In this document: positions 29,432 to 51,322 of the stretch, piece by piece
How positions within the stretch are numbered: the stretch's first letter is position 1
Layout of the letters: every line of letters begins with the position of its first letter
From: an uncultured Thermoleophilia bacterium
GTDB taxonomy: Bacteria; Actinomycetota; Thermoleophilia; UBA2241
Direction: 5' to 3'
Length of the DNA: 64,000 nt
Assembly: GCA_963715985.1 (NCBI GenBank)
Contig: CAVQSP010000013.1
Span: 384,001-448,000, forward strand
Position numbers and translations under genes: made by a program
The notes under the pieces: model-generated
What the model saw: the letters and a program-made list of their open reading frames with translations, nothing else
Told to the model about the DNA's origin: nothing
Database searches by the model: none

Positions 29432-29606
29432 CGAGCTCTCCGAGGTGCAGAGGATCTCATCGACCGGCCCCTTCGATGTACTACAGCACGCGCCGTGCGA
29501 CCAGCATAGTCAGGCCACGACGCTGGGACAACGTCACGTCGACGACGGCGCTCGATGTATCGTTGCGCCAGGCAGGGAGCCGGCACGCGGGACCGCGAGG
29601 TGGACC

Positions 29607-31046: not shown

Positions 31047-31125
31047 GCCGCGGCAAGACCCGCGCGATCAGGGATAGGCAAATGTCCCGGGGGTCGTCCG
31101 GGCGCCGCACGGGTACTGTGAGCTC

Positions 31126-31353: not shown

Positions 31354-31465
31354 CTCTGCCGAAGTACCGCCCGCGTCGCGTTGAAACACGTGTACTTGTG
31401 TGCCGTGCTTCACATATACTTTCCGGACGTTCGTCACGCAGTCATTCGTCGTGGAGGTCTGGCAC

Positions 31466-32275
31466 ATGTTGTTGATGGGTGAATCGATCAACGGGACGCG
31501 CAAGCAGGTCGCCGAAGCGATCCAGGCGCGCAACACCGAGTTCATCAAGACTCTCGCCATGGATCAGGTCGAGGCTGGCGCGTCCGTCCTCGACGTCAAC
31601 GGCGGCGTGGCCGGCGGTGACGAGATCGCCGACATGACGTGGCTCATCGACACGGTCATGGAAGTCACCGACATGCAGCTCATGGTCGACTCGGCCAGCG
31701 CCTCCGTGCTCGAACACGGCGTCAAGCTGATCATCGACAAGGGCGGCAAGGTGCCGTTCATCAACTCGATCAGCGGTGAGCAGGCGCGCATCGACGCCGC
31801 CCTGCCGCTGGTGGAGAAGTACAAGACCCCGGTCATCGCCCTGTGCCTCAGCGAAGACGGCATCCCGCCGACCGCGCAGGACCGCTTCGACGTCGCCAAG
31901 CAGCTGCACGACCTGTGCACCGGCGTCGGCCTCCCGGCCGAGGACGTCTGGGTCGACCCGCTCGTGCTCTCCGTGTCCGCCGACGGCCAGGCCGCCGTCG
32001 TCACCATGCAGACCCTCGCCATGGTCAAGGCTCAGCTTCCCGTGCGCACCACCGGCGGCCTCAGCAACGTCAGCTTCGGCCTGCCGAACCGCCCGCTCCT
32101 CAACCGCACCTTCGTGGCGATGTGCGCCGGTCTGGGCATCGACGGCGCCGTCCTCGACGTGCGCAACAAGCAGATGATGGCCACCATCAAGGCGATCGAG
32201 GCCCTGCGCGGCGAGGACAACTTCTGCGGCGGCTACCTCACCGCGCACCGCGCCGGTATCCTCGAAGCCCAGTAG
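31466..32275 (+). CDS. Methyl-THF:corrinoid methyltransferase (AcsE/MT2, pterin-binding TIM barrel)
   Basis: MGESINGTRK, LDVNGG, LMVDS, INSI, DPLV, GGLSNVSFGLP.R..LN..F. Confidence 0.9.
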   Translation: MLLMGESINGTRKQVAEAIQARNTEFIKTLAMDQVEAGASVLDVNGGVAGGDEIADMTWLIDTVMEVTDMQLMVDSASASVLEHGVKLIIDKGGKVPFINSISGEQARIDAALPLVEKYKTPVIALCLSEDGIPPTAQDRFDVAKQLHDLCTGVGLPAEDVWVDPLVLSVSADGQAAVVTMQTLAMVKAQLPVRTTGGLSNVSFGLPNRPLLNRTFVAMCAGLGIDGAVLDVRNKQMMATIKAIEALRGEDNFCGGYLTAHRAGILEAQ

Positions 32276-32282
32276 CACTGCC

Positions 32283-33386
32283 GTGAACGAGCCGGCGCGC
32301 CCGCGCGCCCGTGAGCTGGGCATAGCTCCGGGCACCCTGCCCGCCGGCCCGCTCAACGCGATCACCGACGTGCCCGGCGTGCGCGTCGGCCACTGTACCG
32401 TCTCGTGGGGCGGGCCCGAGCTGCCTTCCGGCAGCGGGCCCGCCCGCACGGGCGTCACCGCCATCTTCCCTCACGACGGCGACCTCTGGCGCGAACGCGT
32501 CGTGGCCGGCGCGTTCGCCGCCAACGGCGTGGGCGAGGTCATCGGCATCAGCGCCATCCGCGAGTGGGGCCTCATCGAGACGCCGGTCATGCTCACCAAC
32601 TCGCAGAGCGCCGGCGCCGTGTACGACGCCACCGTGCGCTGGATGATGGACCGCGACCCGGGTGTGGGCATCGAGGACGCGGCCATGCCCGTCGTCGGCG
32701 AATGTGACGACGGCTTTCTCAACGACCTCCGCGGCATGCACGTGCACGAAGAGCACGTGCGACAGGCCTTGGACTCGGCCGCCGCCGGCCCCGTGGCCGA
32801 AGGCTGCGTCGGGGCCGGCACAGGCATGACCTGCTTCGACTTCAAGGGCGGCATCGGCACGTCGTCGCGCCTCGTCGGCGCGCACGGCCTGCCGTTCACT
32901 GTCGGCGTGCTCGCGCTCACCAACTTCGGCGAACGCCGCCGGCTGTCCGTGGACGGCGTCCCCGTGGGCAGCGCCATCACCGACCTCCTGCCGCTCGAGC
33001 ACCGCGAGGGCTCGTGCATCGTGGTCCTGGCCACCGACGCGCCGCTCACAGCACGGCAGTGCGAGCGGCTGGCCAAGCGCTGCGCTCTCGGCCTGGCCGT
33101 GACCGGCTCCGTGGCTGGGGACGGCAGCGGGGAGATCATGGTGGCCTTCAGCACCGCCCAGCGCGTGCCGCGCGCGTCCGCGGCGCCGCTGCAGTTCACC
33201 TCGGTGAGCAACGACCACATGCACGAGCTGTTCGAGGCCTCTGTGGATGCTACGGCCGAGAGCGTGCTCAACTCGCTGTGCGCGGCGCGGACCACCGTGG
33301 GGCGCGGCGGCAACACGGTCCATGAGCTGCCGCAGGATCGCCTCGTCGACGTCATGCGCGCCCACGCCTACCTGCCTCTCGCCTGA
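32283..33386 (+). CDS. DmpA/P1-family (peptidase S58) L-aminopeptidase/D-esterase
   Basis: GPLNAITDVPGVRVGH, RTGVT, PVVGECDD, GAGTGM..F.FKGGIGTSSR, EG/SCIVVLATDAP cleavage motif. Confidence 0.92.
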   Translation: MNEPARPRARELGIAPGTLPAGPLNAITDVPGVRVGHCTVSWGGPELPSGSGPARTGVTAIFPHDGDLWRERVVAGAFAANGVGEVIGISAIREWGLIETPVMLTNSQSAGAVYDATVRWMMDRDPGVGIEDAAMPVVGECDDGFLNDLRGMHVHEEHVRQALDSAAAGPVAEGCVGAGTGMTCFDFKGGIGTSSRLVGAHGLPFTVGVLALTNFGERRRLSVDGVPVGSAITDLLPLEHREGSCIVVLATDAPLTARQCERLAKRCALGLAVTGSVAGDGSGEIMVAFSTAQRVPRASAAPLQFTSVSNDHMHELFEASVDATAESVLNSLCAARTTVGRGGNTVHELPQDRLVDVMRAHAYLPLA

Positions 33387-33422
33387 CGGCGGGTGCCGGC
33401 GGCACGGCAGAGGCATCACGGC

Positions 33423-33452
33423 TTGCCCGGCCGCGCCCGGGAAGACTATTCT
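33423..33452 (+). promoter_or_regulatory. Candidate promoter of the ABC/MttB operon
   Basis: TTGCCC-N18-TATTCT, implying a leader of about 270 nt. Confidence 0.4.
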
Positions 33453-33727
33453 GACGCCAGCGACGACGGCCTCCGCGGCCGTCAGTCAGGTGTCCAGGGG
33501 GTGCATCGTCGAGGGAGTCGCACAGCCTTTGAGTCCCGCGTCCTCCGTGGGCACAGGTGTCGCCGCTCCGCTCCGCCGGGTCTCCGTCGTCGCCTCGTCG
33601 CGTCCGCAGCTGCGGAAGCGCCTCCAGCAGACCGACCACCAGCTCCGAGGTACGGCAACCGCGGATGTGAGAAGGAGGTAAGGGCTCGCGGCGTTCGGGG
33701 CCGAGCACCGGGCGAGCCCGGAGACAA

Positions 33728-34696
33728 GTGGACAAGCGACGATACTTCGTGCGGAAGATCCTGAACGCCGTGCTCACCATCGTACTGGTGGCGTCGTTCA
33801 ACTTCGCACTCTTCAGGATCCTCCCCGGCGACCCGGCGCGCCTGCTCCTGCCCAAGGGCAAGCAGGACCCGTCCGCCATCGAGAAGCAGCGCAAGACCTT
33901 CAACCTCGACAAGCCCATGTGGCAGCAGTTCGCCCTCTACTGGGGCGACACGCTGCAGGGCAAGTTCGGCATGTCCTTCTCCGAGAAGCGGCCGGTGACG
34001 GAGGTGGTGGCCGAGCGCATCTGGCCGACGGTGCTCCTTGTGGGCGTGGGTACGGTGTTCGCCACCATCGTCGGCATGATCCTGGGCGTGTTCGCGGGGT
34101 GGCGAAGAAACGGTGTCTTCGATGTGGTCACCACGAACACCGGCATGGTGCTGTACGCCATGCCGACGTTCTGGTTCGGCCTCCTCATGATCATGCTCTT
34201 CGCCACCAAGCTCCGCTGGTTCCCCACGGGCCGCATGGAAGAACCGGGAGTGGTGCTGAGCGGTTTCGCCGCCTTCCAGTCGCTGGCCAAGCACCTCTTC
34301 CTGCCCGCCTTCACGTTCGCCATCGCCTACGTGGGCGAGTACGAGCTCATCATGCGCAGCTCCATCACCGGCGTGATGAAGGAGGACTTCGCGCTCACGG
34401 CGCGCGCCAAGGGCCTCAGCGAGAACGCCGTGCTGTGGCGTCACGTGGTGCCCAACGCCATGCTGCCCACGGTCACCATCGTGATGATGAACCTGGGCTT
34501 CGTGATGTCCGGGGCGATCCTGGCCGAGAGCGTGTTCAACTGGCCCGGGCTGGGGCTGCTCTCGTATGAGTCGATGCAGAAGCGCGACTACCCGGTGATG
34601 CAGGCCGTGTTCCTCATCGCCAGCATCGCCGTGATCGTCGCCAACCTCATCGCCGACATCATGTACTACTACCTCGATCCGCGGGTGCACGCATGA
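33728..34696 (+). CDS. Peptide/nickel ABC permease (DppB/OppB type)
   Basis: LPGDPA, G.FG.SF, P.FW.GL, TARAKGL, ESVFNWPGLG, DYPV, YLDPRV. Confidence 0.93.
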   Translation: MDKRRYFVRKILNAVLTIVLVASFNFALFRILPGDPARLLLPKGKQDPSAIEKQRKTFNLDKPMWQQFALYWGDTLQGKFGMSFSEKRPVTEVVAERIWPTVLLVGVGTVFATIVGMILGVFAGWRRNGVFDVVTTNTGMVLYAMPTFWFGLLMIMLFATKLRWFPTGRMEEPGVVLSGFAAFQSLAKHLFLPAFTFAIAYVGEYELIMRSSITGVMKEDFALTARAKGLSENAVLWRHVVPNAMLPTVTIVMMNLGFVMSGAILAESVFNWPGLGLLSYESMQKRDYPVMQAVFLIASIAVIVANLIADIMYYYLDPRVHA

Positions 34697-36231
34697 TCCC
34701 CCGGCGGTTCAGGAACTGGATCCTCTTCTGGACGCCCATGACGTGGCTGATCCTGGAACTGGTCCTGTATCCCAAGGACGTGCCGCTCTCGGCCGGCTTC
34801 TCGGCGGTCGTCAAGGGCTTCTTCTCGGCGAGCATCGCCTCGTACCCGCCGTGGGTGATCATCCTGGCGGCGATCGTCACCATCGGGCTCGGCGTGCTTG
34901 GCCGGGTGCGCAAGACCAAGGCCGCGGCCTTCGACTACACGCTCATGCTCATGGGCGTCATCTTCGCCGTGTGGGCGTTCCTCGCCGGCGGCGGCACCTC
35001 CGGCTGGTCCGCCGGCGCCAGCGTCATCTCGTACGGCTGGGTGTTCCAGACCATCGAGGTCGTGCTCGGCGGTGTGGCCGCCTGGTTCTGGGCGTCCGGC
35101 AACGGCGAGCGCGCCGAACTGCTCGTGTGGAACACGCACCAGGTGTGGAAGCTCTACCGCGGCAACTGGCAGGGCATGGTGGGCCTCGGCATCCTCGTGG
35201 TCTTCCTGGCCATGGCGCTGCTGGCTCCGTTCCTCATCGACCACGCCCTGCTCGACCCCAACGCCCAGATCGCCGATCCGGCCACCGGCGAGCTCTTCGG
35301 CCCGTACCACCCGCCGACCTGGTACTGGCCGAACCTGTTCGGCACCGACCAGGTCGGGCAGTCGGTGCTGGCGCAGTTCATCTGGAGCGCGCGCATCTCG
35401 CTCATGGTCGGTCTGCTGGCCGCCATCATGTCCACCGTGGTGGGCGCGGGCATCGGCATCGCCGCCGGCTTCTACGGAGGCTGGCAGGGAGAGGTGTGGA
35501 TGCGGCTCACCGACGCGTTCCTCGTCATCCCCTGGCTGCCGCTCGCCATGGTGCTGGCCGCCGCCTGGGGACAGAACTACTGGATGATCATCGTGATCAT
35601 CGGCATCACCAGCTGGCCGGGTACCGCACGCGTGATCAGATCGGACGTGCTGCGCGTGCGCGAACTGCAGTTCATCGAACGCGCCAAGGCCATCGGCTCG
35701 AGCGGTGGGCACATCATGACCAAGCACGTCCTGCCCAACGTGATGCCGCTCATCTTCGCCAACCTCGTGCTGGTCGTGGCCATCGCCATCCTCTCCGAGA
35801 CCACGCTGTCGTTCCTCGGTCTCGGTGACCCCCTCAACTTCAGCTGGGGCACCATGCTCCACTACGCCTGGGTCAACGGCGCCGCCGGTCTGCCGGCCTG
35901 GTGGTACCTGCTCCCGCCGGGCATCGCGATCATCCTCGTGGTGCTGGCCTTCACCTTCATCGGTACGGCCTACGACGAGGTGCTCGATCCCAAGCTGCGC
36001 AAGCGCGAGGACAGCGGCACGGAGAGCCGCTTCGCGGCGCGTGGCGAGCCGGCGGTCGCCATGGGCGGCGCCGGCGTCGGCGGCGGCGGGGGCATCTTCA
36101 CGCCCGGCCAGCAGACCGACGACGCCATGCCCGACTTCAACAAGCCGGCCGGCGGTTCCATCGGCCGGCCTGAAGGCGGCGGCTGGGTCGGCGGCCACAT
36201 CCAGGACGACGAGGAAGGGGGCGAAGAATGA
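34693..36231 (+). CDS. Peptide/nickel ABC permease (DppC/OppC type) with extra N-terminal membrane domain
   Basis: LFGTD..G, ARISL.VG, FIERAKAIG, HVLPN, E..LSFLGLG, WG.ML. Confidence 0.92.
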   Translation: MIPRRFRNWILFWTPMTWLILELVLYPKDVPLSAGFSAVVKGFFSASIASYPPWVIILAAIVTIGLGVLGRVRKTKAAAFDYTLMLMGVIFAVWAFLAGGGTSGWSAGASVISYGWVFQTIEVVLGGVAAWFWASGNGERAELLVWNTHQVWKLYRGNWQGMVGLGILVVFLAMALLAPFLIDHALLDPNAQIADPATGELFGPYHPPTWYWPNLFGTDQVGQSVLAQFIWSARISLMVGLLAAIMSTVVGAGIGIAAGFYGGWQGEVWMRLTDAFLVIPWLPLAMVLAAAWGQNYWMIIVIIGITSWPGTARVIRSDVLRVRELQFIERAKAIGSSGGHIMTKHVLPNVMPLIFANLVLVVAIAILSETTLSFLGLGDPLNFSWGTMLHYAWVNGAAGLPAWWYLLPPGIAIILVVLAFTFIGTAYDEVLDPKLRKREDSGTESRFAARGEPAVAMGGAGVGGGGGIFTPGQQTDDAMPDFNKPAGGSIGRPEGGGWVGGHIQDDEEGGEE

Positions 36232-37253
36232 GCCCCACGAAGACGAAGGCCAAGGCTCCCGAGAAGAAGCCCGTCGAGCGCATCGAGCACGAAGGCCTGC
36301 TCGACGTGCGCGGTCTCACCACCTACTTCAAGCTCGGCGTCGGCGACGTCAAGGCCGTACAGGACGTGAGCTTCGTCCTCAAGCCCGGCGAGAGCCTCGG
36401 CCTCGCCGGCGAGTCCGGCTGCGGCAAGACCACGGCCGCACTCTCCATCCTCAAGCTGCTCCCCGAGAACGGGCGCATCGTGAGCGGCGACGTGCTCTTC
36501 GACGGCCGCAACCTCGCCAAGCGCACCGAGTACGGCATGAGCAAGATCCGCTGGAAGGAGATCAGCATCATCTTCCAGGGGGCGATGAACGCGCTGAACC
36601 CGGTGCAGGAGACGGGCAAGCAGATCGCCGAACCCATCCAGCTGCACGAAGGGCTCAGCGAGGGCAAGGCGATGGTGCGCGTCAAGGAGCTCTACGACCT
36701 CGTCGGCATCAGCCAGAAGCGCGTCATGGACTTCCCGCACCAGCTCTCCGGCGGCATGCGCCAGCGCGCCATGATCGCGATGGCCCTGGCCTGTAACCCC
36801 AAGCTGGTCATCGGCGACGAGCCCACCACAGCGCTCGACGTCATGGTGCAGGCGCAGATCCTCGAGCTCATCCACCGCCTGCGCACCGAGCTCAGCCTCT
36901 CCTTCATCCTCATCAGCCATGACCTCTCCGTGATGGCCGAGACCTGCGACAAGGGCGTCGTCATGTACGCGGGAGAGGTCGTCGAGAGCGGCACCACCGC
37001 CGACATCTTCAACAACGCCACGCACCCCTACACGCGGCAGCTCATCAAGGCGTTCCCCAACATCCACGAGAAACGCGAGATGGTCTCCTCCATCAAGGGC
37101 GACCCGCCCAACCTCGTGAACCCGCCCGCGGGCTGCGGCTTCTGCCCGCGCTGCGACGACAAGATCGCCAGCTGCGAGACCGAGCACCCCGGCCTCATCG
37201 AGGTCGAGCGCGGGCACTTCGTGCGCTGCGTCCACGCACAGAAGGGGGTGTGA
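36228..37253 (+). CDS. Peptide ABC ATPase (DppD/OppD type)
   Basis: [35 protein letters not shown]. Confidence 0.95.
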   Translation: MSPTKTKAKAPEKKPVERIEHEGLLDVRGLTTYFKLGVGDVKAVQDVSFVLKPGESLGLAGESGCGKTTAALSILKLLPENGRIVSGDVLFDGRNLAKRTEYGMSKIRWKEISIIFQGAMNALNPVQETGKQIAEPIQLHEGLSEGKAMVRVKELYDLVGISQKRVMDFPHQLSGGMRQRAMIAMALACNPKLVIGDEPTTALDVMVQAQILELIHRLRTELSLSFILISHDLSVMAETCDKGVVMYAGEVVESGTTADIFNNATHPYTRQLIKAFPNIHEKREMVSSIKGDPPNLVNPPAGCGFCPRCDDKIASCETEHPGLIEVERGHFVRCVHAQKGV

Positions 37254-37255
37254 GG

Positions 37256-38332
37256 ATGGCGGCCACCGAGAATCCGACCGCGCGCACCGACATCTACGAG
37301 AAGGGCACAGTCCACGCCGACGACCTCTCGTCGGCCACCGTCAAGGACGGCGTGCTCTTCGACGTCAAGGACCTGGAGGTCTACTTCCCCATCCGCGAGG
37401 GGTTCTTCAAGAGCATGGTCTCCAGCGAGAAGAAGTTCGTGAAGGCCGTGGACCACATCAGCTTCCAGGTGATGCAGGGGGAGATCCTCGCCCTCGTCGG
37501 CGAGTCGGGCTGCGGCAAGACGACCACGGGGCGCACGCTGCTGCGCCTCGAGGAGCCTACCGGCGGCCACATCCTCTACAAGGGGCTGCCGGTGGAGAAG
37601 TTCTCGGCCAAGACGCTGCGCGCGTACCGCAAGAAGGCGCAGATCATCTTCCAGGACCCCTACAACTCCATCAATCCCAAGCAGACGATCTTCGACATCG
37701 TCGCCGAACCCCTCGAGGTCAACAACATCACCTCCAGCGAGCGGGAGAAGGAAGAGCGGGTCATCACCGCGATCAGCGAGGCCGGCCTGCGGCCGGCCAC
37801 CGAATACCTCTACCGCTACCCGCACGAGCTCTCCGGCGGGCAGCGCCAGCGCGTGTGCATCGCCGGCGCCACGGTGCTCGACCCCGACGTGATCGTCGCC
37901 GACGAGCCGGTCGCCAGCCTGGACGTCTCCATCCGCAACGACATCCTCAAGCTGATGGTGGAGGAGAAGGAGAAGCTCGGCGTCACGTACATCTTCATCA
38001 CCCACGACCTCTCCCTGGCCTGGGTGATCAGCGACCGCATCGCCGTGATGTACCTGGGCCGCATCGTGGAGATCGGCGAGACCGAGGAGGTCGTCGCCAA
38101 CCCGCAGCACCCGTACACGCGGGCGCTCATCAGCGTGATCCCGGTGCCCGATCCTCTGGCCAAGCGCGAGCACGTGATCCTCAAGGGCGAGACGCCGAAC
38201 CCGGTGGACATCCCGTCGGGCTGCCGCTTCCACCCGCGCTGCCCCGAGGCGATCGAGGCGTGCAAGGAGATCGACCCGCCCGACGTGCACATCGGCGGCG
38301 ACCACTACGCCGCCTGCATCAGGATCAAGTAG
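37256..38332 (+). CDS. Peptide ABC ATPase (DppF/OppF type)
   Basis: [40 protein letters not shown]. Confidence 0.95.
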
Positions 38333-38345
38333 CAGAAGCACACCC

Positions 38346-38379
38346 GCGACGCGGGCGGCGGGACGCCGCCCGCGTCGCG
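38346..38379 (+). terminator. GC-rich hairpin between the ABC ATPase and mttB-like gene (terminator or stabiliser)
   Basis: GCGACGCGGGCGGCG...CGCCGCCCGCGTCGC. Confidence 0.55.
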
Positions 38380-38440
38380 TCAGGACCGGTGGACCGGGCG
38401 TGTGCCCGGCCGGCGCGTCCACAGACTGAGGGGGCACCCG

Positions 38441-39916
38441 TTGCGGGACTCACGTATCGACATCTGGCCCGACGAGGCCATCGAGGCCATGCATCTGGCG
38501 TCGCTCGAGCTGCTGGAACGCGCCGGCGTCAAGGTCGAGTCGCCGGTCGCGGTCGATCTCCTCACCGCGGCGGGCTGCACCGTCGCCGCCGGGCGCGTGC
38601 GCGTGCCGCGGCAGGTGGTGGAGGACGCGCTCGCGGCGTGCCCGGACTCGGCCACGCTGGCCGCCCGCGACCCGCACCGCTCGCTGGTGTTCGACGGCGA
38701 GCCCGGGCCGACCTACGTGCACAACATGGGCGGCGCCCGCGACGTGGCCGACCCGCGCAGCGGGTCGCTGCGGCGCGCCTGTCTGCGCGACCAGGTGCTC
38801 TCGGCACGCGTCATGCACAGCCTGGTACACCAGGACCAGGTCACGTCGTTGTGGCAGCCGGAGGACGTCCCCGACCCGCTCGAGCCCCTGTACTCGTACC
38901 TGGTGCTCGCGCACGAGACCGACAAGGCCATCGGCGGGCCCGGCATCTCCTACGATTTCCAGGCCCGCTACCTGCGGGAGATGGCCACCGCCGTGACCGG
39001 CGCCGACGGCGCCCACGGCGTGTACCCGGTGGACCTCGCCTTCTCGCCGGTGAGCCCGCTCGTGCTCGGCGGCGAGGTCACGGACGCTCTCGTGGCCCAG
39101 GTGCGGCTGGGTGGCATCATCGTCGAGATCCTGCCATGCCCCGCCGCCGCCACCACGGCCCCGGGGACGCTCTCGGCGGCCATCGCCCAGCAGAACGCCG
39201 AGGTGCTCGCCGGCATCACGCTCACGCAGCTCGTCGCCCCCGGCACGCCGGTCTACTACGGGCCCCGGCTGAGCGCCGTGGACCCGCGCAGCGGTGTGGT
39301 GGTGTCGGGCACGCCCGAGACCGGCGTGGCCTCTGTGGCGGCAGTGCTGCTGGCTCGGCGGTACGGTCTGGCCTGCGACTGCTACGGCCCGTGCAGTGAC
39401 AGCAAGGTCGTGGACACCCAGTTCGGCTACGAGCGCGCCGTCAATGCGCTGCTCGGCCTGGCCGCCAGGCCTCGTCTCCTGTCCGGCGTCGGCGAGATCC
39501 AGGCGGGCGTGGCCAGCTGCCTCGAGGTGCTCGTCATCGATGACGAGGTGCTCAACAACGCCTTCTACGCGCTGGCCGAGCGGCCCTGGGACGCCGACGC
39601 GCTGGACGTGGACGCCATGGTGGACGGCGTGCTGTCCGGCCGCGGCTTCCTCGGCACCAAGCACACGCGGCGCTACATCCGCAGCGAGTTCGTCACCCCG
39701 CTGCTGAGCTACCGTGGCGGGCTCAACGACTGGCTGGCGTCCGGGCGCGGCGGGGTGGTCGACCTGGCGTCCGAGCGCGTCGCCGCCTTGGTCCAACGTG
39801 AGCCGGTGGGGCTGCCCGGCGACGTGCTCGAGGAGCTGTGCGGGCTCATCGCCGCCTGCGCCGCCGAGATCGGCATCCCCGAGTATCCCGATCCGCGCCG
39901 CGCGCTGGTCGTGTAG
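38441..39916 (+). CDS. Trimethylamine methyltransferase (MttB) superfamily, non-pyrrolysine member
   Basis: H.ASLELLE..GV, SPL, TAPGTL..AIAQQNAEVLAG...Q...PGTP..YG, GTPE, SDSK..D.Q.GYE, DDE, FL...HT. Confidence 0.92.
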   Translation: MRDSRIDIWPDEAIEAMHLASLELLERAGVKVESPVAVDLLTAAGCTVAAGRVRVPRQVVEDALAACPDSATLAARDPHRSLVFDGEPGPTYVHNMGGARDVADPRSGSLRRACLRDQVLSARVMHSLVHQDQVTSLWQPEDVPDPLEPLYSYLVLAHETDKAIGGPGISYDFQARYLREMATAVTGADGAHGVYPVDLAFSPVSPLVLGGEVTDALVAQVRLGGIIVEILPCPAAATTAPGTLSAAIAQQNAEVLAGITLTQLVAPGTPVYYGPRLSAVDPRSGVVVSGTPETGVASVAAVLLARRYGLACDCYGPCSDSKVVDTQFGYERAVNALLGLAARPRLLSGVGEIQAGVASCLEVLVIDDEVLNNAFYALAERPWDADALDVDAMVDGVLSGRGFLGTKHTRRYIRSEFVTPLLSYRGGLNDWLASGRGGVVDLASERVAALVQREPVGLPGDVLEELCGLIAACAAEIGIPEYPDPRRALVV

Positions 39917-39931
39917 GGGCGGGGTCCGGGC

Positions 39932-41061: not shown

Positions 41062-42707
41062 GCCGCCTGGACCTCGTCGTCGCCGGCGCCCGCGTGGTGG
41101 ACGGGTGCGGCAACCCGTGGTTCTACGGCGACGTGGGCATACGCGGCGACCGCGTGGCCGCCATCGGACGGCCGGGGACGCTGCGGGCGCCGGCCGTCGT
41201 CGAGGCCGGCGGCCGCTACGTGTGCCCGGGGTTCATCGATCCGCACACGCACTCCGACGTCTCGATCCTGCTGCACCCGCGCGCCGACTCCGCGGTACGC
41301 CAGGGCGTCACCACCCACGTCACCGGCAACTGCGGCATGTCGGCGGCGCCGGTGAGCGTCGCCCACCGCGACGACGCCGTACACAACTGGGGCCACTACG
41401 CCTGGGACCTCGCGGGCGTCGCCTGGGACTGGCGCACGTTCGGCCAGTACCTCAGGGCACTCGGCCGCGCCGGCCACGCCATCAACATCGCGCCGCTCGT
41501 AGGGCACGGGGCCCTGCGCCTGGCCGTGGTCGGGTTCGCCGAGCGGGCCGTCAGCGCGCGCGAACTGGCGCGCATGGAGCGCCTCCTCGACGAGGCCATG
41601 CGCGCCGGCGCCCACGGCATGTCGAGCGGCCTCGTCTATCCTCCCGGCTGCTTCGCCGACACCGGCGAGCTCCTGCGTCTGTGCCGCGTGGTGGCCAGGT
41701 ACGGCGGCATCTACACGTCGCACGTGCGCGGCGAGCGCGAGACCATCCTCGAGGCGGTCGCCGAGGCCATCGCCATCGGTCGCGCCGCCGGCGTGGCCGT
41801 GGAGGTCTCGCACAACGCGCCCAAATGGGGCGCGCCTGAGGACGCGAGCGCCAATCTGGCGCTCATGGAGCAGGCGCGCCGCGAGGGTCTGGACGTGACC
41901 ACCGACAACGACGCGCATCCGGAGCTGGCGCCACGCCTCTCCCGCGCCCTGCCGCAGCCGCTGCTGGATGTGAGCCGCGAGGAGCTGCTCGCGCTGCTCG
42001 CGGACCCGGCGCGGCGCGAGCAGCTGCGCCGCGACATCGCCGAGGACGTCCTCCCCGGCGCCGGCTACCTCGGCCTCGTCCGGCACGGCCGCTTCGACCG
42101 TATCGTCATCCTCCACGCCGGGCGGCATCCGGAGTTGCGCGGCCGCGCCGTCGCGGACATCGCCGCCGAGCGCGGCCGTGACCCCTTCGACGTCTTCCTC
42201 GACCTCATCGTCGAGGAGGACGACGACGTGGTCGGCATCTTCGACTACATCCTCGAGGACGACATCCGCGCCCTGCTGCGCAGCCCGCTCGCCATGGTGT
42301 CGTCGGATGGTCTGGTCATGCCGCCGGCCGACGAGATCGACGATCCCGCCCTGTACTGGCCCTGCAGCTACGGCGAGTACGCAGGCGTTCTGGCCCGCTT
42401 CGTGCGCGAGGAGGGTGTGCTGCGCCTCGAGGAGGCCGTGCGCAAGATGACCTCCTTCCCGGCGCAGCGCTTCGGCCTGCACGACCGCGGCGTGCTGCGT
42501 CCCGGCCTCAAGGCCGATCTCGTGGTGTTCGACCTCGAGAGGGTGCGGGACCGCGCCACCAACCGCTTCCCCCACACCTATCCCTTCGCGAACATCCCAC
42601 ACCGGCACGCCGAGGGCTTCGACTGGGTGATCGTCAACGGCGAGCCGGTGATCGCCGACGGCGAGCACACGGGAGCACTGCCCGGGCGGGTGCTTCGCCG
42701 CAGCTGA
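41058..42707 (+). CDS. N-acyl-D-amino-acid deacylase (D-aminoacylase) family
   Basis: VVDGCGNP...DVGI, PGFIDPHTHSD, QGVTT..GNCG, SSGL.YPPG, SHVRGE, KMTSFPA.RFGL, ADLVVFD. Confidence 0.93.
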   Translation: MSRLDLVVAGARVVDGCGNPWFYGDVGIRGDRVAAIGRPGTLRAPAVVEAGGRYVCPGFIDPHTHSDVSILLHPRADSAVRQGVTTHVTGNCGMSAAPVSVAHRDDAVHNWGHYAWDLAGVAWDWRTFGQYLRALGRAGHAINIAPLVGHGALRLAVVGFAERAVSARELARMERLLDEAMRAGAHGMSSGLVYPPGCFADTGELLRLCRVVARYGGIYTSHVRGERETILEAVAEAIAIGRAAGVAVEVSHNAPKWGAPEDASANLALMEQARREGLDVTTDNDAHPELAPRLSRALPQPLLDVSREELLALLADPARREQLRRDIAEDVLPGAGYLGLVRHGRFDRIVILHAGRHPELRGRAVADIAAERGRDPFDVFLDLIVEEDDDVVGIFDYILEDDIRALLRSPLAMVSSDGLVMPPADEIDDPALYWPCSYGEYAGVLARFVREEGVLRLEEAVRKMTSFPAQRFGLHDRGVLRPGLKADLVVFDLERVRDRATNRFPHTYPFANIPHRHAEGFDWVIVNGEPVIADGEHTGALPGRVLRRS

Positions 42708-42820
42708 TGGGCCACCGCGGCCAGAGCGCTCCCGCACCGAGGTCCAGAACGTACACGCCACCGCGGCCTCTTTTGTCACATGTTGTGGTGTCACACTTGG
42801 ACATGCTGTAGAATCTCCCC

Positions 42821-44479
42821 ATGATCACGGTCCAGGACATCCTCGAGATCCCGGATCTCGACCTCCGCCTGCTCGCCGGCACCAAGTCCACGAGCAACCC
42901 CGTGCGCTGGGTGCACATCACTGAAGTCCCCGACCCCACCAAGTGGCTCAAGGGCGGGGAACTGCTGCTCACCACCGGCTACGGCTTCGTCGGCAACGAA
43001 GAGGAGCAGGTGGCGCAGATGAAGCGCCTCATCGACCACAACATCTCGGGCCTCGGCTTCGGCACCGGGTTCAGTTTCGACAAGGTGCCCCCGGCTCTCG
43101 TCAGGGTGGCCGAAGAGTACGGCTTCCCGCTGTTCGAGGTGCCGTACCACGTGCCGTTCATCGCCATCACCGAGGCCGTGGCGTCCAAGATCGTCAACGA
43201 GCAGTACTCGCTTCTGCAGCGCAGCCTCGCCGTGCACGAGAAGCTCACCAAGATCGTGCTGGAGGAGAAGGGCCTCGAGGCCATCCTCTCGACGCTCTCG
43301 GCCCTCGTCGGCTGCTCCGCCGTGCTCTTCGACTTCCACGGCGTGGTGCTCTGCGAGGCCGCCTATCGCCGGCGCCTCGGCGGCGAGCTCATCGCCGACC
43401 TCTGGGGCCGCATCAGCGACCGCCGCGCGGACCGCCAGAACTTCGCCCTCACCATCGCCGGGGTGGCTTCCGGCGTCCAGGTGTACCCGGTGGTCGCCTC
43501 GCACCGCATCGGCGCGTTTCTCGCCGTGGTCAAGGACAGCGGCGACTTCAGCGAGTACGACCGCATCATCCTGCACAACGTGGTCACCGTGACGGCCCTC
43601 GAGCTGGTCAAGAAGAAGGCCGTCGCCGAGACCGAGAAGCGCCTCGCCGGCGACTTCTTCGACGAGCTCATCGCCAGCGACCTCTACGAGGAGGAGATCG
43701 CCCGCCGGCTCGCGTTCTTCGGGCTGGACCCGCTCTCGCCGCACCTCATCCTGCTCCTGGACATCGATGCGGCGCCCGAGGGCGGCGCGGATGCCGTCCA
43801 GGCCGGCGCCCAGGACGTGCGCGAGCGGCTCCACTGGGCGGTGGACGAGTTCATGGCGCGACGCGACGTGCTCTTCATCTCGGCTTCGAGGGCCGACTCG
43901 GTGGTCATCCTCGTGCAGCCGGGCAAGGCGGACGGCAGCGACGTCATCGGCCTGGCCGGGGAACTGCAGGCGGCCATCGGCCAGCTCCTCCCCGAGGTCA
44001 GCGTGTCACTCGGCATCGGCCGCCCGCACCGCCAGCTCATCGACCTGCGGCAGAGCTACTACGAGGCCAGCTACGCCATCAAGATCCGCACGCTCAAGGG
44101 CGAGCGCCGCGTCATCGCCAGCTTCGACGACCTCGGGTCCTACGGCCTGCTGCTCGGTCTGCAGGACACGCTGTCCCTGCAGGTCTTCTACGACAGCGTG
44201 CTCGGCAAGCTTCAGGAGTACGACGAGCAGAACTCCAGCGACCTCGTCAAGAGCCTCGCCTGCTTCCTCGAGGCCAACGGCCATTGGGGCGACGCTGCCG
44301 AGAAGCTGTACGTGCACCGGCACACCTTGCGGTACCGCATGAAGCGGGTGGAGGAGATCACCGGCCGCGACCTCGACCAGTCACAGGATCGCATGGAGTT
44401 CTGGCTGGCGCTCAAGGCCAAGGAGCTCATCGACCAGTCCCAGAAGGGCAAACCGGGCCCGGACGCACGGCGCTCCTGA
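42821..44479 (+). CDS. PucR-family transcriptional regulator
   Basis: VRWVHITEVPDP..WL.GGELLLTTG N-domain; C-terminal HTH LYVHRHTLRYR; TAGAAT 6 nt before ATG. Confidence 0.95.
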   Translation: MITVQDILEIPDLDLRLLAGTKSTSNPVRWVHITEVPDPTKWLKGGELLLTTGYGFVGNEEEQVAQMKRLIDHNISGLGFGTGFSFDKVPPALVRVAEEYGFPLFEVPYHVPFIAITEAVASKIVNEQYSLLQRSLAVHEKLTKIVLEEKGLEAILSTLSALVGCSAVLFDFHGVVLCEAAYRRRLGGELIADLWGRISDRRADRQNFALTIAGVASGVQVYPVVASHRIGAFLAVVKDSGDFSEYDRIILHNVVTVTALELVKKKAVAETEKRLAGDFFDELIASDLYEEEIARRLAFFGLDPLSPHLILLLDIDAAPEGGADAVQAGAQDVRERLHWAVDEFMARRDVLFISASRADSVVILVQPGKADGSDVIGLAGELQAAIGQLLPEVSVSLGIGRPHRQLIDLRQSYYEASYAIKIRTLKGERRVIASFDDLGSYGLLLGLQDTLSLQVFYDSVLGKLQEYDEQNSSDLVKSLACFLEANGHWGDAAEKLYVHRHTLRYRMKRVEEITGRDLDQSQDRMEFWLALKAKELIDQSQKGKPGPDARRS

Positions 44480-44584
44480 GCCCGCTCCGGGACGAGGCTC
44501 GCTAGCGGCCGCAGGCACTCCAGCGAGCGGGGCGCCAACGAGCTGGGGAACGGCTCGGATGTCGCAGACCAGGCACACCGCTCA

Positions 44585-45349
44585 CTAGGACGTCACCAGC
44601 GAGCCGTTGTCCACCACCACGTTGACGCCCGTCACCGCGTCCGTCCCCAGGCAGAACCGCACCGCGGCGCCGATGTCGCGCGTGCTCACGAGCCGCTCGG
44701 ACGCCACCTTGGAGGCGGCGCGCAACGTGGCCTCGCGGTGCTCGTCGTCATCGAGGTCCACGGGGCCCGGCGCCACGCCGCACACGCGCACGCCCTCGGG
44801 TGCCCAGGCGCGGGCCAGCTCCTTGACCAGGTGGATCTGCGCGGCTTTGGCGGCGCCGTGGGCGGCGAAGTTGGCCCACGGCTGCAGGCCGAGGTAGTCG
44901 GTGAGCGCGATGATGGCGCCGGCCGGCTCCGGGGCGCCGGCCACTCGGTCCGAGAGGAACTGCTCACGGGCCGCGCAGGCCGCGAAGAAGAACCCTTTCG
45001 CGATGGTGTCCAGCGAGCCGTCCCACGAGGCCTCGTCCAGGTCCTGCGGCGGCGTCGGCACGAAGGGCCCGCTGGCCGCGAACACGAGCCCGTCCAGCCC
45101 GCCGAGCGCCGCGGCCGCCTCGGAGACGAGCCGGGCGGCGGCCGCGGGCCGACGCACGTCGCCGGCCACGGCCGCGGCGTACGGCGCGCCGGCCGCGCGC
45201 AGCGCGGCGACCTGCGCCGCGGCGGCCTCGCCGGCCTCGCGCGAGGAGACGCAGACGGAGGCGCCGGCCCCGGCGAGGTCGAGCGCGATGGCCCTCCCCA
45301 GCCGGCGGACGCCGCCGATCACGAGCAGTCTGGCGCCGGCGACCTTCAT
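44585..45349 (-). CDS. Short-chain dehydrogenase, pteridine reductase (FolM)-like
   Basis: IGGVRRLGRAIA, HGAAK, VRV.GVAPGPV, VTG..V.VD.G. Confidence 0.85.
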   Translation of the reverse strand: MKVAGARLLVIGGVRRLGRAIALDLAGAGASVCVSSREAGEAAAAQVAALRAAGAPYAAAVAGDVRRPAAAARLVSEAAAALGGLDGLVFAASGPFVPTPPQDLDEASWDGSLDTIAKGFFFAACAAREQFLSDRVAGAPEPAGAIIALTDYLGLQPWANFAAHGAAKAAQIHLVKELARAWAPEGVRVCGVAPGPVDLDDDEHREATLRAASKVASERLVSTRDIGAAVRFCLGTDAVTGVNVVVDNGSLVTS

Positions 45350-46356
45350 GCCGGCTCCCCGAGGTGCTCGTACAGTTCTGCGGCGATGCTCGCGATGGCG
45401 GCCGAAGCCTGCCCCCGGCTGCGCTCGGGCAGGCCCTTCCAGAAGACCACCATCACCACGGGCGCGCCGGACGGAGTGAAGACGAGGGCGGCGTCGTTGC
45501 TCGTCCCGGTCACGCCGCCGGTCTTGTTGGCCACCAGCAGGCCGGGCGGCAGCCCGGCGGGGATCTTGTCGCGCCACTCCTGGCGGCTGAGGATCTCGAT
45601 CATGAGCCGGCAGCTCGGGGCAGAGGCGCAGCGTGCTTCGGCGATCATGGCCAGCAGCTCGGCCATGTCGCGCGGGGAGCCCTGGTTGTCCAGGGCCTGG
45701 TCGACGGCGAAGGCGTCGTCGTAACCCAGCGACTCGTCCGGTCCCCAGCGCTCGTCGTAGCGGTGCTGGAAGCCCGCACCGCTGAGCCGCTCGTTCTCCT
45801 CGAGCACGCGCGCGAACGCTGCTTCGCCCTCGCCGCGCGCCTCCAGCTCGTGCCACCGCGCCACGATCTGCGGGCCGCTCAGCGCGCTCCACTCGCTGCC
45901 CAGGCCGCACTCCATGAGGAAGTACTCGCGGTTGGGCATGCGGCAGTCGATGCTGTCGAGCCCCAGACCCCTCATCGTGTGGTTGACCGACCCGAGGCCC
46001 ACCAGCCGCCACAGCATGTCGGTGGCGGTGTTGTCGCTAAGGGTGATCATGAGGTAGAGGAGGTCTCTCACCGAAGGCTGCAGGCCTTCCTTGCAGTGAA
46101 TGAGGGTGCTCCCCGGGCTCTTGTCGCTCTCGTGCAAAGTGAGGCGGTCGTCGAGCCGGACGGCGCCGCCGTCGACCCTGCGCATCACCTCGACCATGAC
46201 GGGGATCTTGAAGCAGCTCGCCATCGGGAACAGCTCGTCGGCGTTGACGCAGACGGCCGCTTCGCTGGCGAGATTGCGGGCGGCCACGCCCACCGTACCG
46301 CCCAGCGCGGACGACACGGCCGCGACGCGCTCGTGGACCCCCTCCGGCCTGGCCAT
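45346..46356 (-). CDS. Serine hydrolase of class A beta-lactamase-like fold
   Basis: ASCFK (SxxK), SDNTAT (SxN), NKTG; no signal peptide. Confidence 0.88.
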   Translation of the reverse strand: MARPEGVHERVAAVSSALGGTVGVAARNLASEAAVCVNADELFPMASCFKIPVMVEVMRRVDGGAVRLDDRLTLHESDKSPGSTLIHCKEGLQPSVRDLLYLMITLSDNTATDMLWRLVGLGSVNHTMRGLGLDSIDCRMPNREYFLMECGLGSEWSALSGPQIVARWHELEARGEGEAAFARVLEENERLSGAGFQHRYDERWGPDESLGYDDAFAVDQALDNQGSPRDMAELLAMIAEARCASAPSCRLMIEILSRQEWRDKIPAGLPPGLLVANKTGGVTGTSNDAALVFTPSGAPVVMVVFWKGLPERSRGQASAAIASIAAELYEHLGEPA

Positions 46357-46492
46357 GGACACGCCTCCCTTCGGCTCGTGCGCCAACGATACACGAGCTG
46401 CGCGATGCGGAGCCAGTGAGCGCGCCCATCCTTTGGGCGCTGTGCAGCGGATGGGCGATTTCTTTGCATTGTGGGCTTTTCTGTGCGTTCCG

Positions 46493-46510
46493 TTGTGCTA
46501 GAGTGCACAA
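46493..46510. promoter_or_regulatory. Palindromic operator in the divergent hydrolase/ald region
   Basis: TTGTGC-TAGAGT-GCACAA plus several extra TGTGC half-sites in an AT-rich patch. Confidence 0.55.
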
Positions 46511-46578
46511 ACACGCACGACTCTGTGCATCCGCACGCGCGGAGAACGAAATCAACCGACAAGGAGCGAGGAGGAGCC

Positions 46579-47700
<1,122 letters not shown>

Positions 47701-47888
47701 CAGCGCTTTCGGCTCCCGTGCGGCCAGTGGCCGCCTGCGGGCTCACGTGCCAGAATGGAGCCGCGCTCGGACCGACGTCCGGGCGCGGCTCCATCCGTTC
47801 CGGGCGAGACTCCGGTGCGCGGGACATGCGGCGTGCGCGGAGGGGACGGGGGGAGCGCCGAAGCACCTCACGCGGCAAAGGAGCACGA

Positions 47889-49627
47889 ATGGGCGACCTT
47901 CTCCGTATCGACCTCACCACGCGGACCACCAGCGAAGAGACGGTGCCTCCGCAGCTCATCAAGGAGCTCATCGGCGCCAAGGGCATCGGCACGCACTATC
48001 TCTGCGAGGAGGTCGGGCCGGACGTCGACCCGCTGAGCCCCGGCAACAAGCTCATCTTCGTGGTCGGGCCCATGGGCGGCACCACCATGCTGGGCAGCAA
48101 CCGGTACTCCGTGTTCTTCGCCTCGCCGCTCACCAACGGCTACGGCGAGTGCTACTCGGGCGGCAACCTCACGCCGCAGTTCGCCAGACCGGCTACAAGG
48201 TGGTCATCGTCGAGGGCAAGGCCGATGGACCTGCCTACCTCGAAGATCAGCGAACAGGGTGCTGCGTTCCACGACGCCTCCGACTCTGTGGGGGATGGAC
48301 GCGTTCAAGGCCGAGGACGCGATGCTCGCGCGCACGCCAGCACCAGAAGGCGCAGGCCTGCGTCATCGGCCAGGCCGGCGAGCAGCTCGTGCGGTTCGCC
48401 TGCGTCAACAACAACTACTGGCACCAGCTCGGTCGCGGCGGCCCGGGCGCCGTGTTCGGCTCCAAGAACCTCAAGGGCGTGGTCTGGCACGGCGAGAAGA
48501 AGGTCGAGGTGGCGCGTCCGGACGACTACAAGGCCGTGGTCCGCGACCTCATCGAGCGCATGCAAGGACGATCCCGGCGTCGCCGCCTACCAGCGCGGCG
48601 GCACGCTCAACATGGTGCGCGACCATGAACGGTCAGAACGCGTTCCCCACGAAGTACTGGCGCAGCGGCTCATTCGAGACCTTCGAGCGCATCACGGTCG
48701 AGACCATGCTGGCGGAGCACGGCACGGTCAACCAGACTTGCCCGCCGTGCGTGTTCAAGTGCGTCAAGCGCAACACGGTGTTCAAGGGTCGCCACGAGGG
48801 CCTCGTCGTCGAAGGGCCCCGAGTACGAGACCGCCTACGTGTTCGGCGGCCTCTGCTGCATCGACGACTTCGCCGAGATCATGTGGCTCAACGACCTCTG
48901 CGACCGCTTCGGCGTGGACACTATGGACGCCGGTAACCTGTGCGCGCTGGCCATCGAGTGCAGCCAGCGCGGCATCATCGACGAGAAGCTCGGCTGGAAC
49001 GACCCTGTCGGCGTCGGCGCCTTCCTCGAGAAGCTCTGCCTGCGTGAGGGCATCGGCGACCTGTGGGCCGAGGGCATCCTCGCGGTCGAGAAGGAGTATG
49101 GGCTCGAGGGCCTCGCCGTGCACTGCAAAGGCATGGCGCCGGCCGGCTACGAGCCCCGCCGCATGAAGGGAATGGGCCTGGGCTTCGCGACCACGCCGCG
49201 TGGCGCCTGCCACCTGCGCGCCACGATGTACAAGCCCGAGATCACGGGCGTCATCGACCCCCAGGAGGTCGTGGGCAAGGCGGCCATCTACTGCGACTGG
49301 GAAGACCGCCTCACCATCATGGACACGCTGATCTACTGCCGCTTCTACCGGGACATGGTGCAGTGGCCGTACATCACAGCGGTGGTCAACGCCGTCATCG
49401 GCACCGACTACACCGAAGAGGACCTGCACCGCATCGCCAACCGCATCATCGGCATGGGCAGGGACTTCAACCTGGCGCGCGGCATCGGCAGGGAGACCGA
49501 GCGGCTGCCGGAGTGGGTCTCGGACAAGCCGCGCGAAGACACGGGCTGGACGTTCCCGCAGAGCGAGATGGAGTACATGCTCGCCGAGTACTACGAGATC
49601 CGCGGCTGGGGGCCGCTGCCTGCCTGA
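47889..49627 (+). CDS. Aldehyde:ferredoxin oxidoreductase (W-AOR family) with about seven single-base indels at 48185-48820
   Basis: LRIDLT, VDPLSP.N, SPLT, GRGG.GAVFGSKNLK, C..C...C, EGPEYET, CD..G.DT, GACH when frames are joined; no in-frame stops. Confidence 0.85.
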
Positions 49628-49648
49628 CCCCCGCGGCCGGGCCGGTGT

Positions 49649-49981
49649 TCAGAGACCCAGGTACTCCCGGACCTTGCGGTACGGCCGCAAGCCGTCGTTG
49701 AACGCCAGCAGGAGGACCTGAAGGCGACGCACTGAAGCGTCCAGGGCATCGAGGTTGAGGGCGATCGCGTCCACCTTGAGGCCGATGTGGTAGCTCACCG
49801 AGGCGAGCTCCTCGGACCTGTGCGCCAAGCCCTCGGCGAGCGGCAGCGCCACCTTCGAGATCCTGATGCCGCGCTTGGCCAGCTTCCACGCCCTGTGCGC
49901 GAAGTAGGCGGCGAAGACCAGCACGATGACGAAGCTGATGAGCCCGACGGTGAGCAGGCCGAGTCCGTTGAAGTGCGTCAT
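49649..49981 (-). CDS. Hypothetical single-pass membrane protein
   Basis: N-terminal TM then helical segment; TACACT 7 nt before ATG. Confidence 0.65.
   Translation of the reverse strand: MTHFNGLGLLTVGLISFVIVLVFAAYFAHRAWKLAKRGIRISKVALPLAEGLAHRSEELASVSYHIGLKVDAIALNLDALDASVRRLQVLLLAFNDGLRPYRKVREYLGL

Positions 49982-51245: not shown

Positions 51246-51322
<77 letters not shown>

Follow-up and report, generated by a model that had tools for sequence, protein, structure and literature searches.

Methyl transfer by the MttB superfamily follows the known corrinoid three-component scheme, in which one methyltransferase (MT1) moves a methyl group from its substrate to a corrinoid protein and a second methyltransferase (MT2) passes it on to tetrahydrofolate. 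In the cited literature, as far as the available texts extend, superfamily members of known function act on free small amines, namely trimethylamine, glycine betaine, proline betaine, carnitine, gamma-butyrobetaine and phosphocholine. In Eubacterium limosum, a single MtqC/MtqA/RamQ set, whose genes stand away from those of the MT1 enzymes, serves MtpB, MtcB and MtyB (PMC8604678, available text), and the glycine betaine-binding residues of MtgB have been assigned as Y97, R312, H348 and F356, of which R312 is conserved in all MttB members of known function, all of them taking acidic quaternary amines (PMC13080624, available text). Actinobacteriota of a peat mire express pyrrolysine (Pyl)-type mttB and mtbB, and RBG-16-64-13, a genus of the same phylum as the organism studied here, is among the most active genera and is described as an active anaerobic methylotroph (PMC10805028, available text). 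Here we consider a stretch of 64,000 nucleotides (the window) from an uncultured Thermoleophilia bacterium (assembly GCA_963715985.1, contig CAVQSP010000013.1, positions 384,001 to 448,000), in which a non-Pyl MttB gene is embedded in a 10.4-kb cassette (window positions 32283-42707) together with genes for an Opp/Dpp-type importer and three hydrolases of amide-cleaving families. What is known is the three-component scheme; what is new is a divergent-clade MT1 in an importer-plus-amidase cassette. A literature search returned no title or abstract describing the combination of MttB, importer and amide hydrolases, full texts being outside that search.

How does this locus compare with the described systems? 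As in E. limosum (PMC8604678, available text), the non-Pyl MT1 gene stands apart from the corrinoid protein gene; one MT2 and one activase (MtqA and RamQ) serve several MT1s there, and one non-AcsE MT2 faces about 50 MttB paralogues here; and methyl-tetrahydrofolate feeds the Wood-Ljungdahl pathway there, as we propose for this organism. Unlike the window MttB, which has Asp, the E. limosum enzymes act on free acidic quaternary amines and have the Arg equivalent to MtgB R312. Linkage to an Opp/Dpp importer and amide hydrolases is undescribed in the cited literature as available, and the hosts differ, a high-GC Thermoleophilia here and a Firmicute there. MtgB of Desulfitobacterium hafniense (2qne, 9yce) is the best solved relative of the window MttB, sharing the Pfam family MTTB and aligning over residues 20-446, but all four of its glycine betaine-binding residues differ in the window protein, and a corrinoid protein gene is not adjacent. 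The Pyl-containing MttB of Methanosarcina barkeri (7xcl) is also of this superfamily, aligning over residues 188-482 (E 1e-34), whereas the window protein has a Cys, variable in relatives, at the pyrrolysine place and no in-frame TAG. Finally, the S58 aminopeptidases DmpA and BapA (1b65, 3n2w) and the Alcaligenes D-aminoacylase (1m7j) are clear homologues of two cassette proteins, with catalytic positions kept. None of these hydrolases is, to our knowledge, known to work with a corrinoid methyltransferase.

A preliminary description of this DNA, made from the sequence alone, had treated an 18-kb island (31466-49627) as one pathway of import, deacylation and demethylation. The genes, strands and families that it named are all present by Pfam and NCBIfam profiles (Table 1), but the island splits into two parts: the 10.4-kb cassette, and a backbone consisting of MT2, a PucR-family regulator, a short-chain dehydrogenase/reductase (SDR) and alanine dehydrogenase (Ald). 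The cassette comprises the S58 peptidase, DppBCDF, the non-Pyl MttB, the C45 amidase and the D-aminoacylase-like amidohydrolase, joined in about half of the relatives by a family-5 binding protein. In three genomes of the same genus (G007, which is 100% complete, G010 and G041), PucR, SDR and Ald come immediately after MT2, and nothing of S58, Dpp, MttB, C45 or the amidohydrolase lies in between. Therefore, the stretch from S58 to the amidohydrolase is a unit that comes and goes, and MT2, PucR, SDR and Ald, being neighbours even in its absence, are not readable as pathway parts. What survives of the original island is thus the block of importer, hydrolases and MttB. Ald and SDR, the latter also on the opposite strand, belong to the backbone, and aldehyde dehydrogenase (ALDH) is a variable neighbour with no match in the approximately 6 kb beyond MT2 in G007 (locus L173); none of the three is retained in the pathway. 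Three of the four proposed amide hydrolases keep their place, whereas the beta-lactamase-like gene, which lies on the opposite strand and is absent at the G007, G010 and G041 loci, is a variable neighbour.

The importer genes, S58, C45, the D-aminoacylase-like gene and the non-Pyl MttB form one tight block that is inherited and lost together, and this block is a real, conserved cassette with a putative import-hydrolyse-demethylate role. The MttB orthologue is absent from 5 of 24 genus genomes. Fifteen same-genus loci have it (77-85% identity), and 14 of them keep the order MT2, S58, DppBCDF, MttB, C45, amidohydrolase, PucR, (SDR, beta-lactamase-like), Ald and aldehyde:ferredoxin oxidoreductase (AOR), the exception being G022. 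A search of wider genome contigs found 53 loci, and among the 15 whose context was examined, eight from Thermoleophilia/Actinomycetota have the cassette, in some cases with additional genes ahead of PucR; their best-segment MttB identities are 46-85%, and two are split by frameshifts. Scanning metagenome contigs with an MttB alignment gave 80 loci, and the following counts use only loci with enough flank. Where MttB identity is at least 74%, C45 lies downstream in 46/46 loci, the amidohydrolase in 31/33 and PucR in 21/22, and S58 lies upstream in 16/16 and DppF or a binding protein in 28/28, with a binding protein directly upstream in 14/30. At 63-71% identity the corresponding counts are 7/10, 2/6, 3/3, 2/4, 5/8 and 3/8. 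The cassette is accordingly kept in Thermoleophilia genomes and in wetland and sediment contigs down to 63% MttB identity; a lack of the combination elsewhere, which the preliminary description had named as a ground for refutation, is not observed. The gene order persists where DppC is only about 58% and SDR about 48% identical; order conservation exceeds near-identical descent, yet it remains within one broad lineage. The window's own genome holds no second full cassette, its two other C45 paralogues (contigs C17 and C10) and one other S58 gene (C3) lying outside such a context. C45 matches at E <=1e-20 occur in 34 of 401 sampled genomes of the phylum, and all of those outside the window's genome are at most 36% identical (two unpublished genomes, G129 and G158, are counted in this tally, and their matches are all weak). 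As a separate observation, the interval from the amidohydrolase to PucR is enlarged by additional genes in six loci (L070, L080, L084, L087, L163 and L164), among them a second ABC ATPase (32-33% identical to DppF), and in L163 and L164 a second family-5 binding protein (39%) lies there as well.

The MT1 gene codes for an MttB-superfamily protein (PF06253 at 229 bits, cut-off 25, covering positions 29-499 of the 500 in the profile). It had been called non-Pyl, and rightly so: its frame has no internal stop and no in-frame TAG, its TIGR02369 score is 264.2 bits against a cut-off of 525, and Cys331 aligns with the pyrrolysine (X) of M. barkeri MttB. Among solved structures, the window protein comes closest to MtgB (9yce/2qne, E 2e-46) and M. 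barkeri MttB (7xcl), and the characterised sequences aligned to it were these two and the 4yyc protein. MtgB Y97, R312, H348 and F356 align with Gly, Asp326, Ser361 and Gly369, the Y97 region being gapped and less certain, and the MtgB-type glycine betaine site is not found. Asp326 belongs to a C-D-C-Y-G motif (residues 325-329), in which all 31 aligned relatives have D326, C327, Y328 and G329 and nearly all have C325, whereas position 331 varies (C/T/D/A). The Arg of the acidic quaternary-amine members (MtgB, MtcB, MtyB, MtpB and MthB) is thus replaced by Asp in 31/31. Only six full-length clusters exceed 44% identity to the window MttB among its nearest 150 50%-identity clusters, drawn from a library of 1.84 billion proteins, and at the R312 place Asp is found in 59 and Arg in 9 of the 133 clusters in which the motif could be aligned. 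Judged by these alignments, the window MttB is not MtgB/MtcB-like, its Asp recurs across a large section of the superfamily that is uncharacterised, and its predicted pocket appears to differ from that of every characterised member. An AlphaFold AF2 model (mean pLDDT 79.1, pTM 0.83) has pLDDT <50 in the active-site loops 248-254, 332-341 and 365-372. Two narrower ideas fared badly: Asp326 as a unique mark of this protein was rejected, the residue being so common in the nearest clusters, and a metal site formed by a Cys triad (C325, C327 and C331) was weakened by the variation at position 331 and by several other paralogues that also have Cys there.

The genome is rich in relatives of this gene. 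Its 89 MTTB profile matches collapse to about 50 paralogues of at least 250 residues, about ten of which have one aligned in-frame TAG each at the pyrrolysine place, in the motif LPSWVAG*GDSKV or similar (examples are C3:56551-57957, C3:61572-62990, C4:32137-33549, C13:306720-308123 and C14:696701-698113). Non-Pyl paralogues with Cys at that place (GGCSDAK-type) are found at C3:27095-27283, C3:25616-25807, C3:100770-100946, C9:122040-122219 and C13:284874-285068. Arg at the MtgB R312 place occurs in only one own-genome paralogue among those with the motif region aligned.

The S58 protein matches PDB 2drh at E 7e-95 and DmpA (1b65) at E 1.4e-75, and its Gly-Ser pair aligns with Gly249-Ser250 of 1b65, which we take to be the self-processing and nucleophile site of DmpA. 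The amidohydrolase matches the D-aminoacylase of Alcaligenes faecalis (1m7j/1rjp) at E 8e-77 and the N-acyl-D-Glu deacylase 3gip at E 4e-68, has no NCBIfam model above cut-off, and keeps the HxH, Cys (NCG), His (SH) and Asp (SDG) positions of 1m7j, presumably the metal ligands. The preliminary description had also considered a substrate with D-amino acids; family names are the only basis for that idea. C45 and the amidohydrolase are two genes, which in the window share one long open reading frame (ORF) because of a frameshift only; the 3' end of C45 overlaps the start region of the amidohydrolase.

What feeds the cassette with substrate? DppB, DppC, DppD and DppF are present, with all NCBIfam Opp/Dpp/Nik-type matches under cut-off, and a complete importer would also include a binding-protein gene, which is absent from the window. 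In one related locus (L022), a gene for a 643-residue family-5 binding protein lies between DppF and MttB. Its closest paralogue in the window's genome is 52% identical, an orphan at C4:49610-51271 (+) with no Dpp genes beside it, and is a candidate partner of the window importer. Paralogues of the window MttB at 49-55% identity, in which D-C-Y-G is invariant, have SBP_bac_5 adjacent in 5 of 6 annotated loci, the sixth (L037) having an MFS transporter in its place; an M24 peptidase and an OCD/mu-crystallin gene lie near the paralogue in L038, DUF885 in L036 and L038, and a full Dpp operon with OCD in L039, and in L059 and L069 the paralogue is a second MttB inside the cassette. In the window's genome, the nearest MttB paralogue (45%, contig C9) stands in the order SBP5, DppBCDF, MttB, MttB and an amidohydrolase-like gene, all on one strand. 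The best support for a functional link is this recurrence, in which the hydrolases differ but the importer type and the MttB clade stay the same. The C9 locus itself (C9:116805-132280, -) holds a pair of MttB genes, with 45% and 29% identity to the window MttB, and an Amidohydro_3-like gene (34%).

Candidates for the remaining components of the methyl transfer route lie, for the most part, elsewhere in the genome. MT2 scores 288.9 bits with NF005719 (cut-off 259), as expected of the pterin-binding MT2 of a three-component system, and is 37% identical to an AcsE-like paralogue on contig C11, where CdhC/AcsB stands with that AcsE-like gene beside one of the two activator matches. The preliminary description named a genome without corrinoid protein and activator as a ground for refutation. 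Neither a corrinoid protein nor a RamA-type activase is encoded at the window's or any related locus, but genome-wide profile searches give 35 B12-binding and 2 RACo_C_ter (RACo/RamA-type) matches, candidate partners of this MttB, and that ground therefore does not apply; of the Wood-Ljungdahl genes for which it proposed a search, AcsB/CdhC accompanies the AcsE-like gene. Seven URO-D matches and no MtrH match were found in the same genome by profile search. Pterin_bind has four matches in the genome, one of them the window MT2, and only one MT2 besides the AcsE-like gene; across 31 genus genomes the domain has 1 to 6 matches each, typically three, which from their scores and profile ranges we read as FolP, this MT2 and the AcsE-like gene. 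Because it is the sole non-AcsE pterin-binding MT2 in the genome, and because about three Pterin_bind matches per genome are the rule in the genus, this MT2 is probably a methyl-corrinoid:tetrahydrofolate methyltransferase shared by the whole MttB repertoire of about 50 paralogues.

We envision a scenario whereby the cassette is a catabolic unit for a small, amide-linked, N-methylated compound, set between a shared MT2 gene and a PucR gene, and we would put the probability of this reading at about one half. The Opp/Dpp importer would take up a small peptide-like or N-acylated N-methyl compound, probably a quaternary ammonium, with a family-5 binding protein that is not encoded in cis. The S58, C45 and D-aminoacylase-like enzymes would then cleave its amide bonds, as their families and conserved catalytic positions suggest, and MttB, by analogy with its family, would demethylate the methylated amine, either once freed or while still bound, and load the methyl group onto a corrinoid protein whose gene lies elsewhere. 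Finally, in analogy to MtqC/MtqA/RamQ of E. limosum, the MT2 next door would transfer the methyl group to tetrahydrofolate and hence into the Wood-Ljungdahl route, whose genes the genome contains.

In favour of this scenario are the operon-like spacing, the gain or loss of the genes as one block, their conservation, the recurrence of importer and MttB at other loci (including the Dpp operon beside MttB in L074), the accessory genes elsewhere in the genome, the catalytic positions kept in S58 and the amidohydrolase, and the E. limosum precedent. Several observations weigh against it. Twelve B12-domain queries from the window's own genome found no corrinoid protein gene at the window or related loci, and the window's transporter operon has no solute-binding protein gene; that of the relatives is remote from solved ones (best AppA, E 1.5e-32). 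A Dpp-type importer is no proof of a peptide substrate, because 11 of the 50 MttB paralogues in the genome lie within 6 kb of a family-5 binding protein; the lineage may use Dpp-type importers for methylated compounds generally, and the term "peptide-type" could mislead. The C45 protein is only remotely like the fungal acyltransferase (best PDB match at E 4e-4), and the class of methyl donor is uncertain because MttB has no counterpart of the aromatic pair by which MtgB grips the quaternary amine. Conservation is partly shared descent, as the loci come mostly from one Thermoleophilia clade. MttB can stand alone, as G022 indicates, and its neighbours are unrelated in most of the annotated Chloroflexota loci. 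The cassette may, moreover, be inactive in the window's genome, given the two frameshifts in C45 and the missing binding-protein gene.

The last point leads to a first alternative, namely that the window's copy is a decayed remnant, with C45 a pseudogene, the binding protein lost and no function left, regardless of the intact relatives. Matching the window with intact C45 relatives (tblastn) yields three frames (frame 2, 39932-40234; frame 3, 40290-40841; frame 1, 40843-41052), and the window gene therefore has two frameshifts, near 40235-40300 and near 40841. It is intact as one ORF of 365-385 residues in the seven relatives listed, and in the window NF040521 recognises the middle fragment (105 bits against a cut-off of 85). 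AOR nearby is frameshifted too, with frame jumps at 47800-48800 by third-position G+C content (GC3) and tblastn matches of intact relatives in two frames; the gene is intact, at 578-581 residues, in L027, L040 and L089. To these signs of decay may be added the DppF-MttB gap without a binding-protein gene and the 52% identity of the nearest binding-protein copy elsewhere in the genome. Yet the other eight cassette genes are open with a strong GC3 coding signal, a binding-protein gene is also missing from that place in half of the related loci, and split MttB matches, which are common in this genome (G000; 4.35 Mb, 88.8% complete, 7.3% contaminated) and in several relatives' loci, fit assembly indel errors. 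We compared short-read contigs from four wetland runs over 38400-49700, which represent related strains and not the window's own strain. Base 40247 is absent in both runs covering the site (X2 and X4), base 40844 is absent in X2 only, and several 1-base differences from the window fall at 48184-48812. These contigs document an intact form in near strains; at a divergence from the window of about 2% (39 further letters differ over the 1682 bases of the longest piece), they do not settle the matter and do not thereby demonstrate an error in the window. On balance, the chance that the window's C45 is a real pseudogene is roughly one in three, and decay of the copy as a whole is less probable than not. 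This alternative is compatible with the proposed catabolic unit as well as with the next one.

The main rival of the catabolic unit is mere juxtaposition: the Dpp importer and the S58, C45 and D-aminoacylase-like enzymes would scavenge ordinary or D-amino-acid peptides, for example from cell walls, MttB would demethylate an unrelated free amine, and the block would have landed beside a shared MT2. The hydrolase families are indeed those of ordinary peptide and acyl-amino-acid hydrolases, MT2, PucR, SDR and Ald are backbone genes, and the neighbourhood includes alanine dehydrogenase and an NlpC/P60 gene. Furthermore, six Chloroflexota/Limnocylindrales loci with MttB at 66-70% identity have no S58, C45, amidohydrolase, MT2 or PucR gene (five are Pfam-annotated and the sixth is a 4-kb fragment). 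MttB is counted as occurring without the hydrolases in 4 of the 5 annotated loci and also in G022, where the order is ALDH, MT2, SBP5, MttB, PucR, SDR, Ald and AOR without S58, DppBCDF, C45 and the amidohydrolase. In the remaining annotated Chloroflexota locus (L074), MttB stands beside a divergent DppBCDF, a family-5 binding protein and an AsnC regulator. Against juxtaposition, MttB sits inside the run, 69 bases past DppF and 15 bases ahead of C45; C45 follows it without exception at 74% identity or more and mostly so at 63-71%; and related MttB paralogues again lie by family-5 binding proteins, with other peptidase-like genes. We consider chance adjacency unlikely. In another Chloroflexota locus (L077:4749-8249, +), a SulP/STAS transporter and the MttB orthologue share one 1167-residue frame, which may be a fusion or may reflect a missing stop.

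A further possibility, compatible with either the catabolic unit or juxtaposition and in our view improbable, is that this MttB homologue acts on no quaternary amine at all and takes its methyl group from a protonated secondary or tertiary N-methyl amine, or from a donor methylated on S or O, perhaps with the help of a bound metal, as the invariant D-C-Y-G with its nearly invariant C325, the G/D/S/G that replaces the MtgB residues (Asp for the carboxylate-binding Arg, and no aromatic pair) and the conservation of R312 in all members of known function (PMC13080624, available text) might suggest; but Asp is common in uncharacterised relatives and not alone a mark of new chemistry, the Pyl-equivalent Cys is not constant, and the active-site loops of the model are of low confidence.

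Table 1. Genes at the locus, with coordinates in the window (window G+C approximately 70%, for which reason genes were called by GC3, Pfam and NCBIfam together).
Gene product	Position	Strand	Profile evidence and state	Part of locus
Aldehyde dehydrogenase (ALDH)	29379-31046	+	PF00171 E 1e-165	variable neighbour, outside cassette
MT2, methyl-corrinoid:tetrahydrofolate methyltransferase-like (AcsE/MtqA type)	31400-32275	+	Pterin_bind 76.8 bits	backbone
S58 (DmpA/BapA-type) self-processing aminopeptidase	32283-33386	+	PF03576 E 6e-115, 384 bits	cassette, first gene
DppB, Opp/Dpp-type permease	33728-34696	+	BPD_transp_1, OppC_N, ABC_tran and oligo_HPY across DppBCDF	cassette
DppC, Opp/Dpp-type permease	34693-36231	+		cassette
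DppD, Opp/Dpp-type ATPase	36228-37253	+		cassette
DppF, Opp/Dpp-type ATPase	37250-38332	+		cassette
Non-pyrrolysine MttB-superfamily methyltransferase (MT1)	38402-39916	+	PF06253 229 bits; no in-frame stop	cassette
C45 (AAT-type) Ntn amidase/acyltransferase	39932-41052	+	PF03417; three frames in window	cassette
D-aminoacylase-like metallo-amidohydrolase	~41040-42707	+	Amidohydro_3; start codon uncertain	cassette, last gene
PucR-family regulator	42821-44479	+	PucR, GGDEF_2, HTH_30	backbone
SDR, pteridine-reductase-like	44585-45340	-	adh_short_C2	backbone
Class-A beta-lactamase-fold serine hydrolase	45346-46386	-	Beta-lactamase2 E 5.5e-59	variable neighbour
Alanine dehydrogenase (Ald)	46471-47700	+	TIGR00518 477 bits, cut-off 391.85	backbone
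Aldehyde:ferredoxin oxidoreductase (AOR)	47889-49627	+	partial AFOR_N + AFOR_C; frameshifted in window	

Genes within DppBCDF overlap by 4 bases. ALDH comes closest to the NCBIfam models for 2,5-dioxovalerate and alpha-KG-semialdehyde dehydrogenase, in both cases under cut-off; PucR matches PmfR and AdeR best, far under cut-off; the beta-lactamase-like gene reaches 141.7 bits with NF033103 (cut-off 200); and the SDR, whose minus strand agrees with the GC3 frame pattern, reaches 123.9 bits with the pteridine reductase model NF006598 (cut-off 288). Downstream of AOR lies the usual actinobacterial stretch of NlpC/P60, DsrE, TilS, Hpt, FtsH and FolP. Upstream of ALDH, at 27066-29431 (-), are a gene with two cyclic-nucleotide-binding domains and an alpha/beta-hydrolase/adenylate-cyclase gene; homologues of both adjoin ALDH in L176, and the cyclase gene is immediately 5' of MT2 in L070. 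No known RNA was found in the gaps of the island (31466-49627), the only two in the window being a glmS ribozyme/riboswitch at 881-1056 (+; 93 bits against a gathering score of 37), 5' of the ORF 1027-2928, and a tRNA gene at 51246-51319 (+), between NlpC/P60 and DsrE. A promoter and terminator consensus scan over 30900-46600 found sites no more numerous than in shuffled sequence.

What might the cassette mean for these bacteria? Sequencing runs that contain the window stretch carry wetland or soil labels. A different-pocket MttB tied to a peptide-type importer and three amidases points to untried methyl donors in a wetland lineage, and a single MT2 gene seems to serve these bacteria's whole MttB repertoire. 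The intact cassettes of relatives provide a concrete gene set for cloning and assay. The more far-reaching proposal, which we offer tentatively and with the odds well against it, is that the D-C-Y-G clade of MttB defines a new substrate class, namely betaine-type N-methylated amino acids within, or just freed from, small peptides or N-acyl conjugates, reached through Opp/Dpp importers and dedicated amidases. If this were true, methylated peptide-like compounds would supply anaerobic wetland Thermoleophilia with methyl groups for acetogenesis, beyond the free methylamines and betaines.

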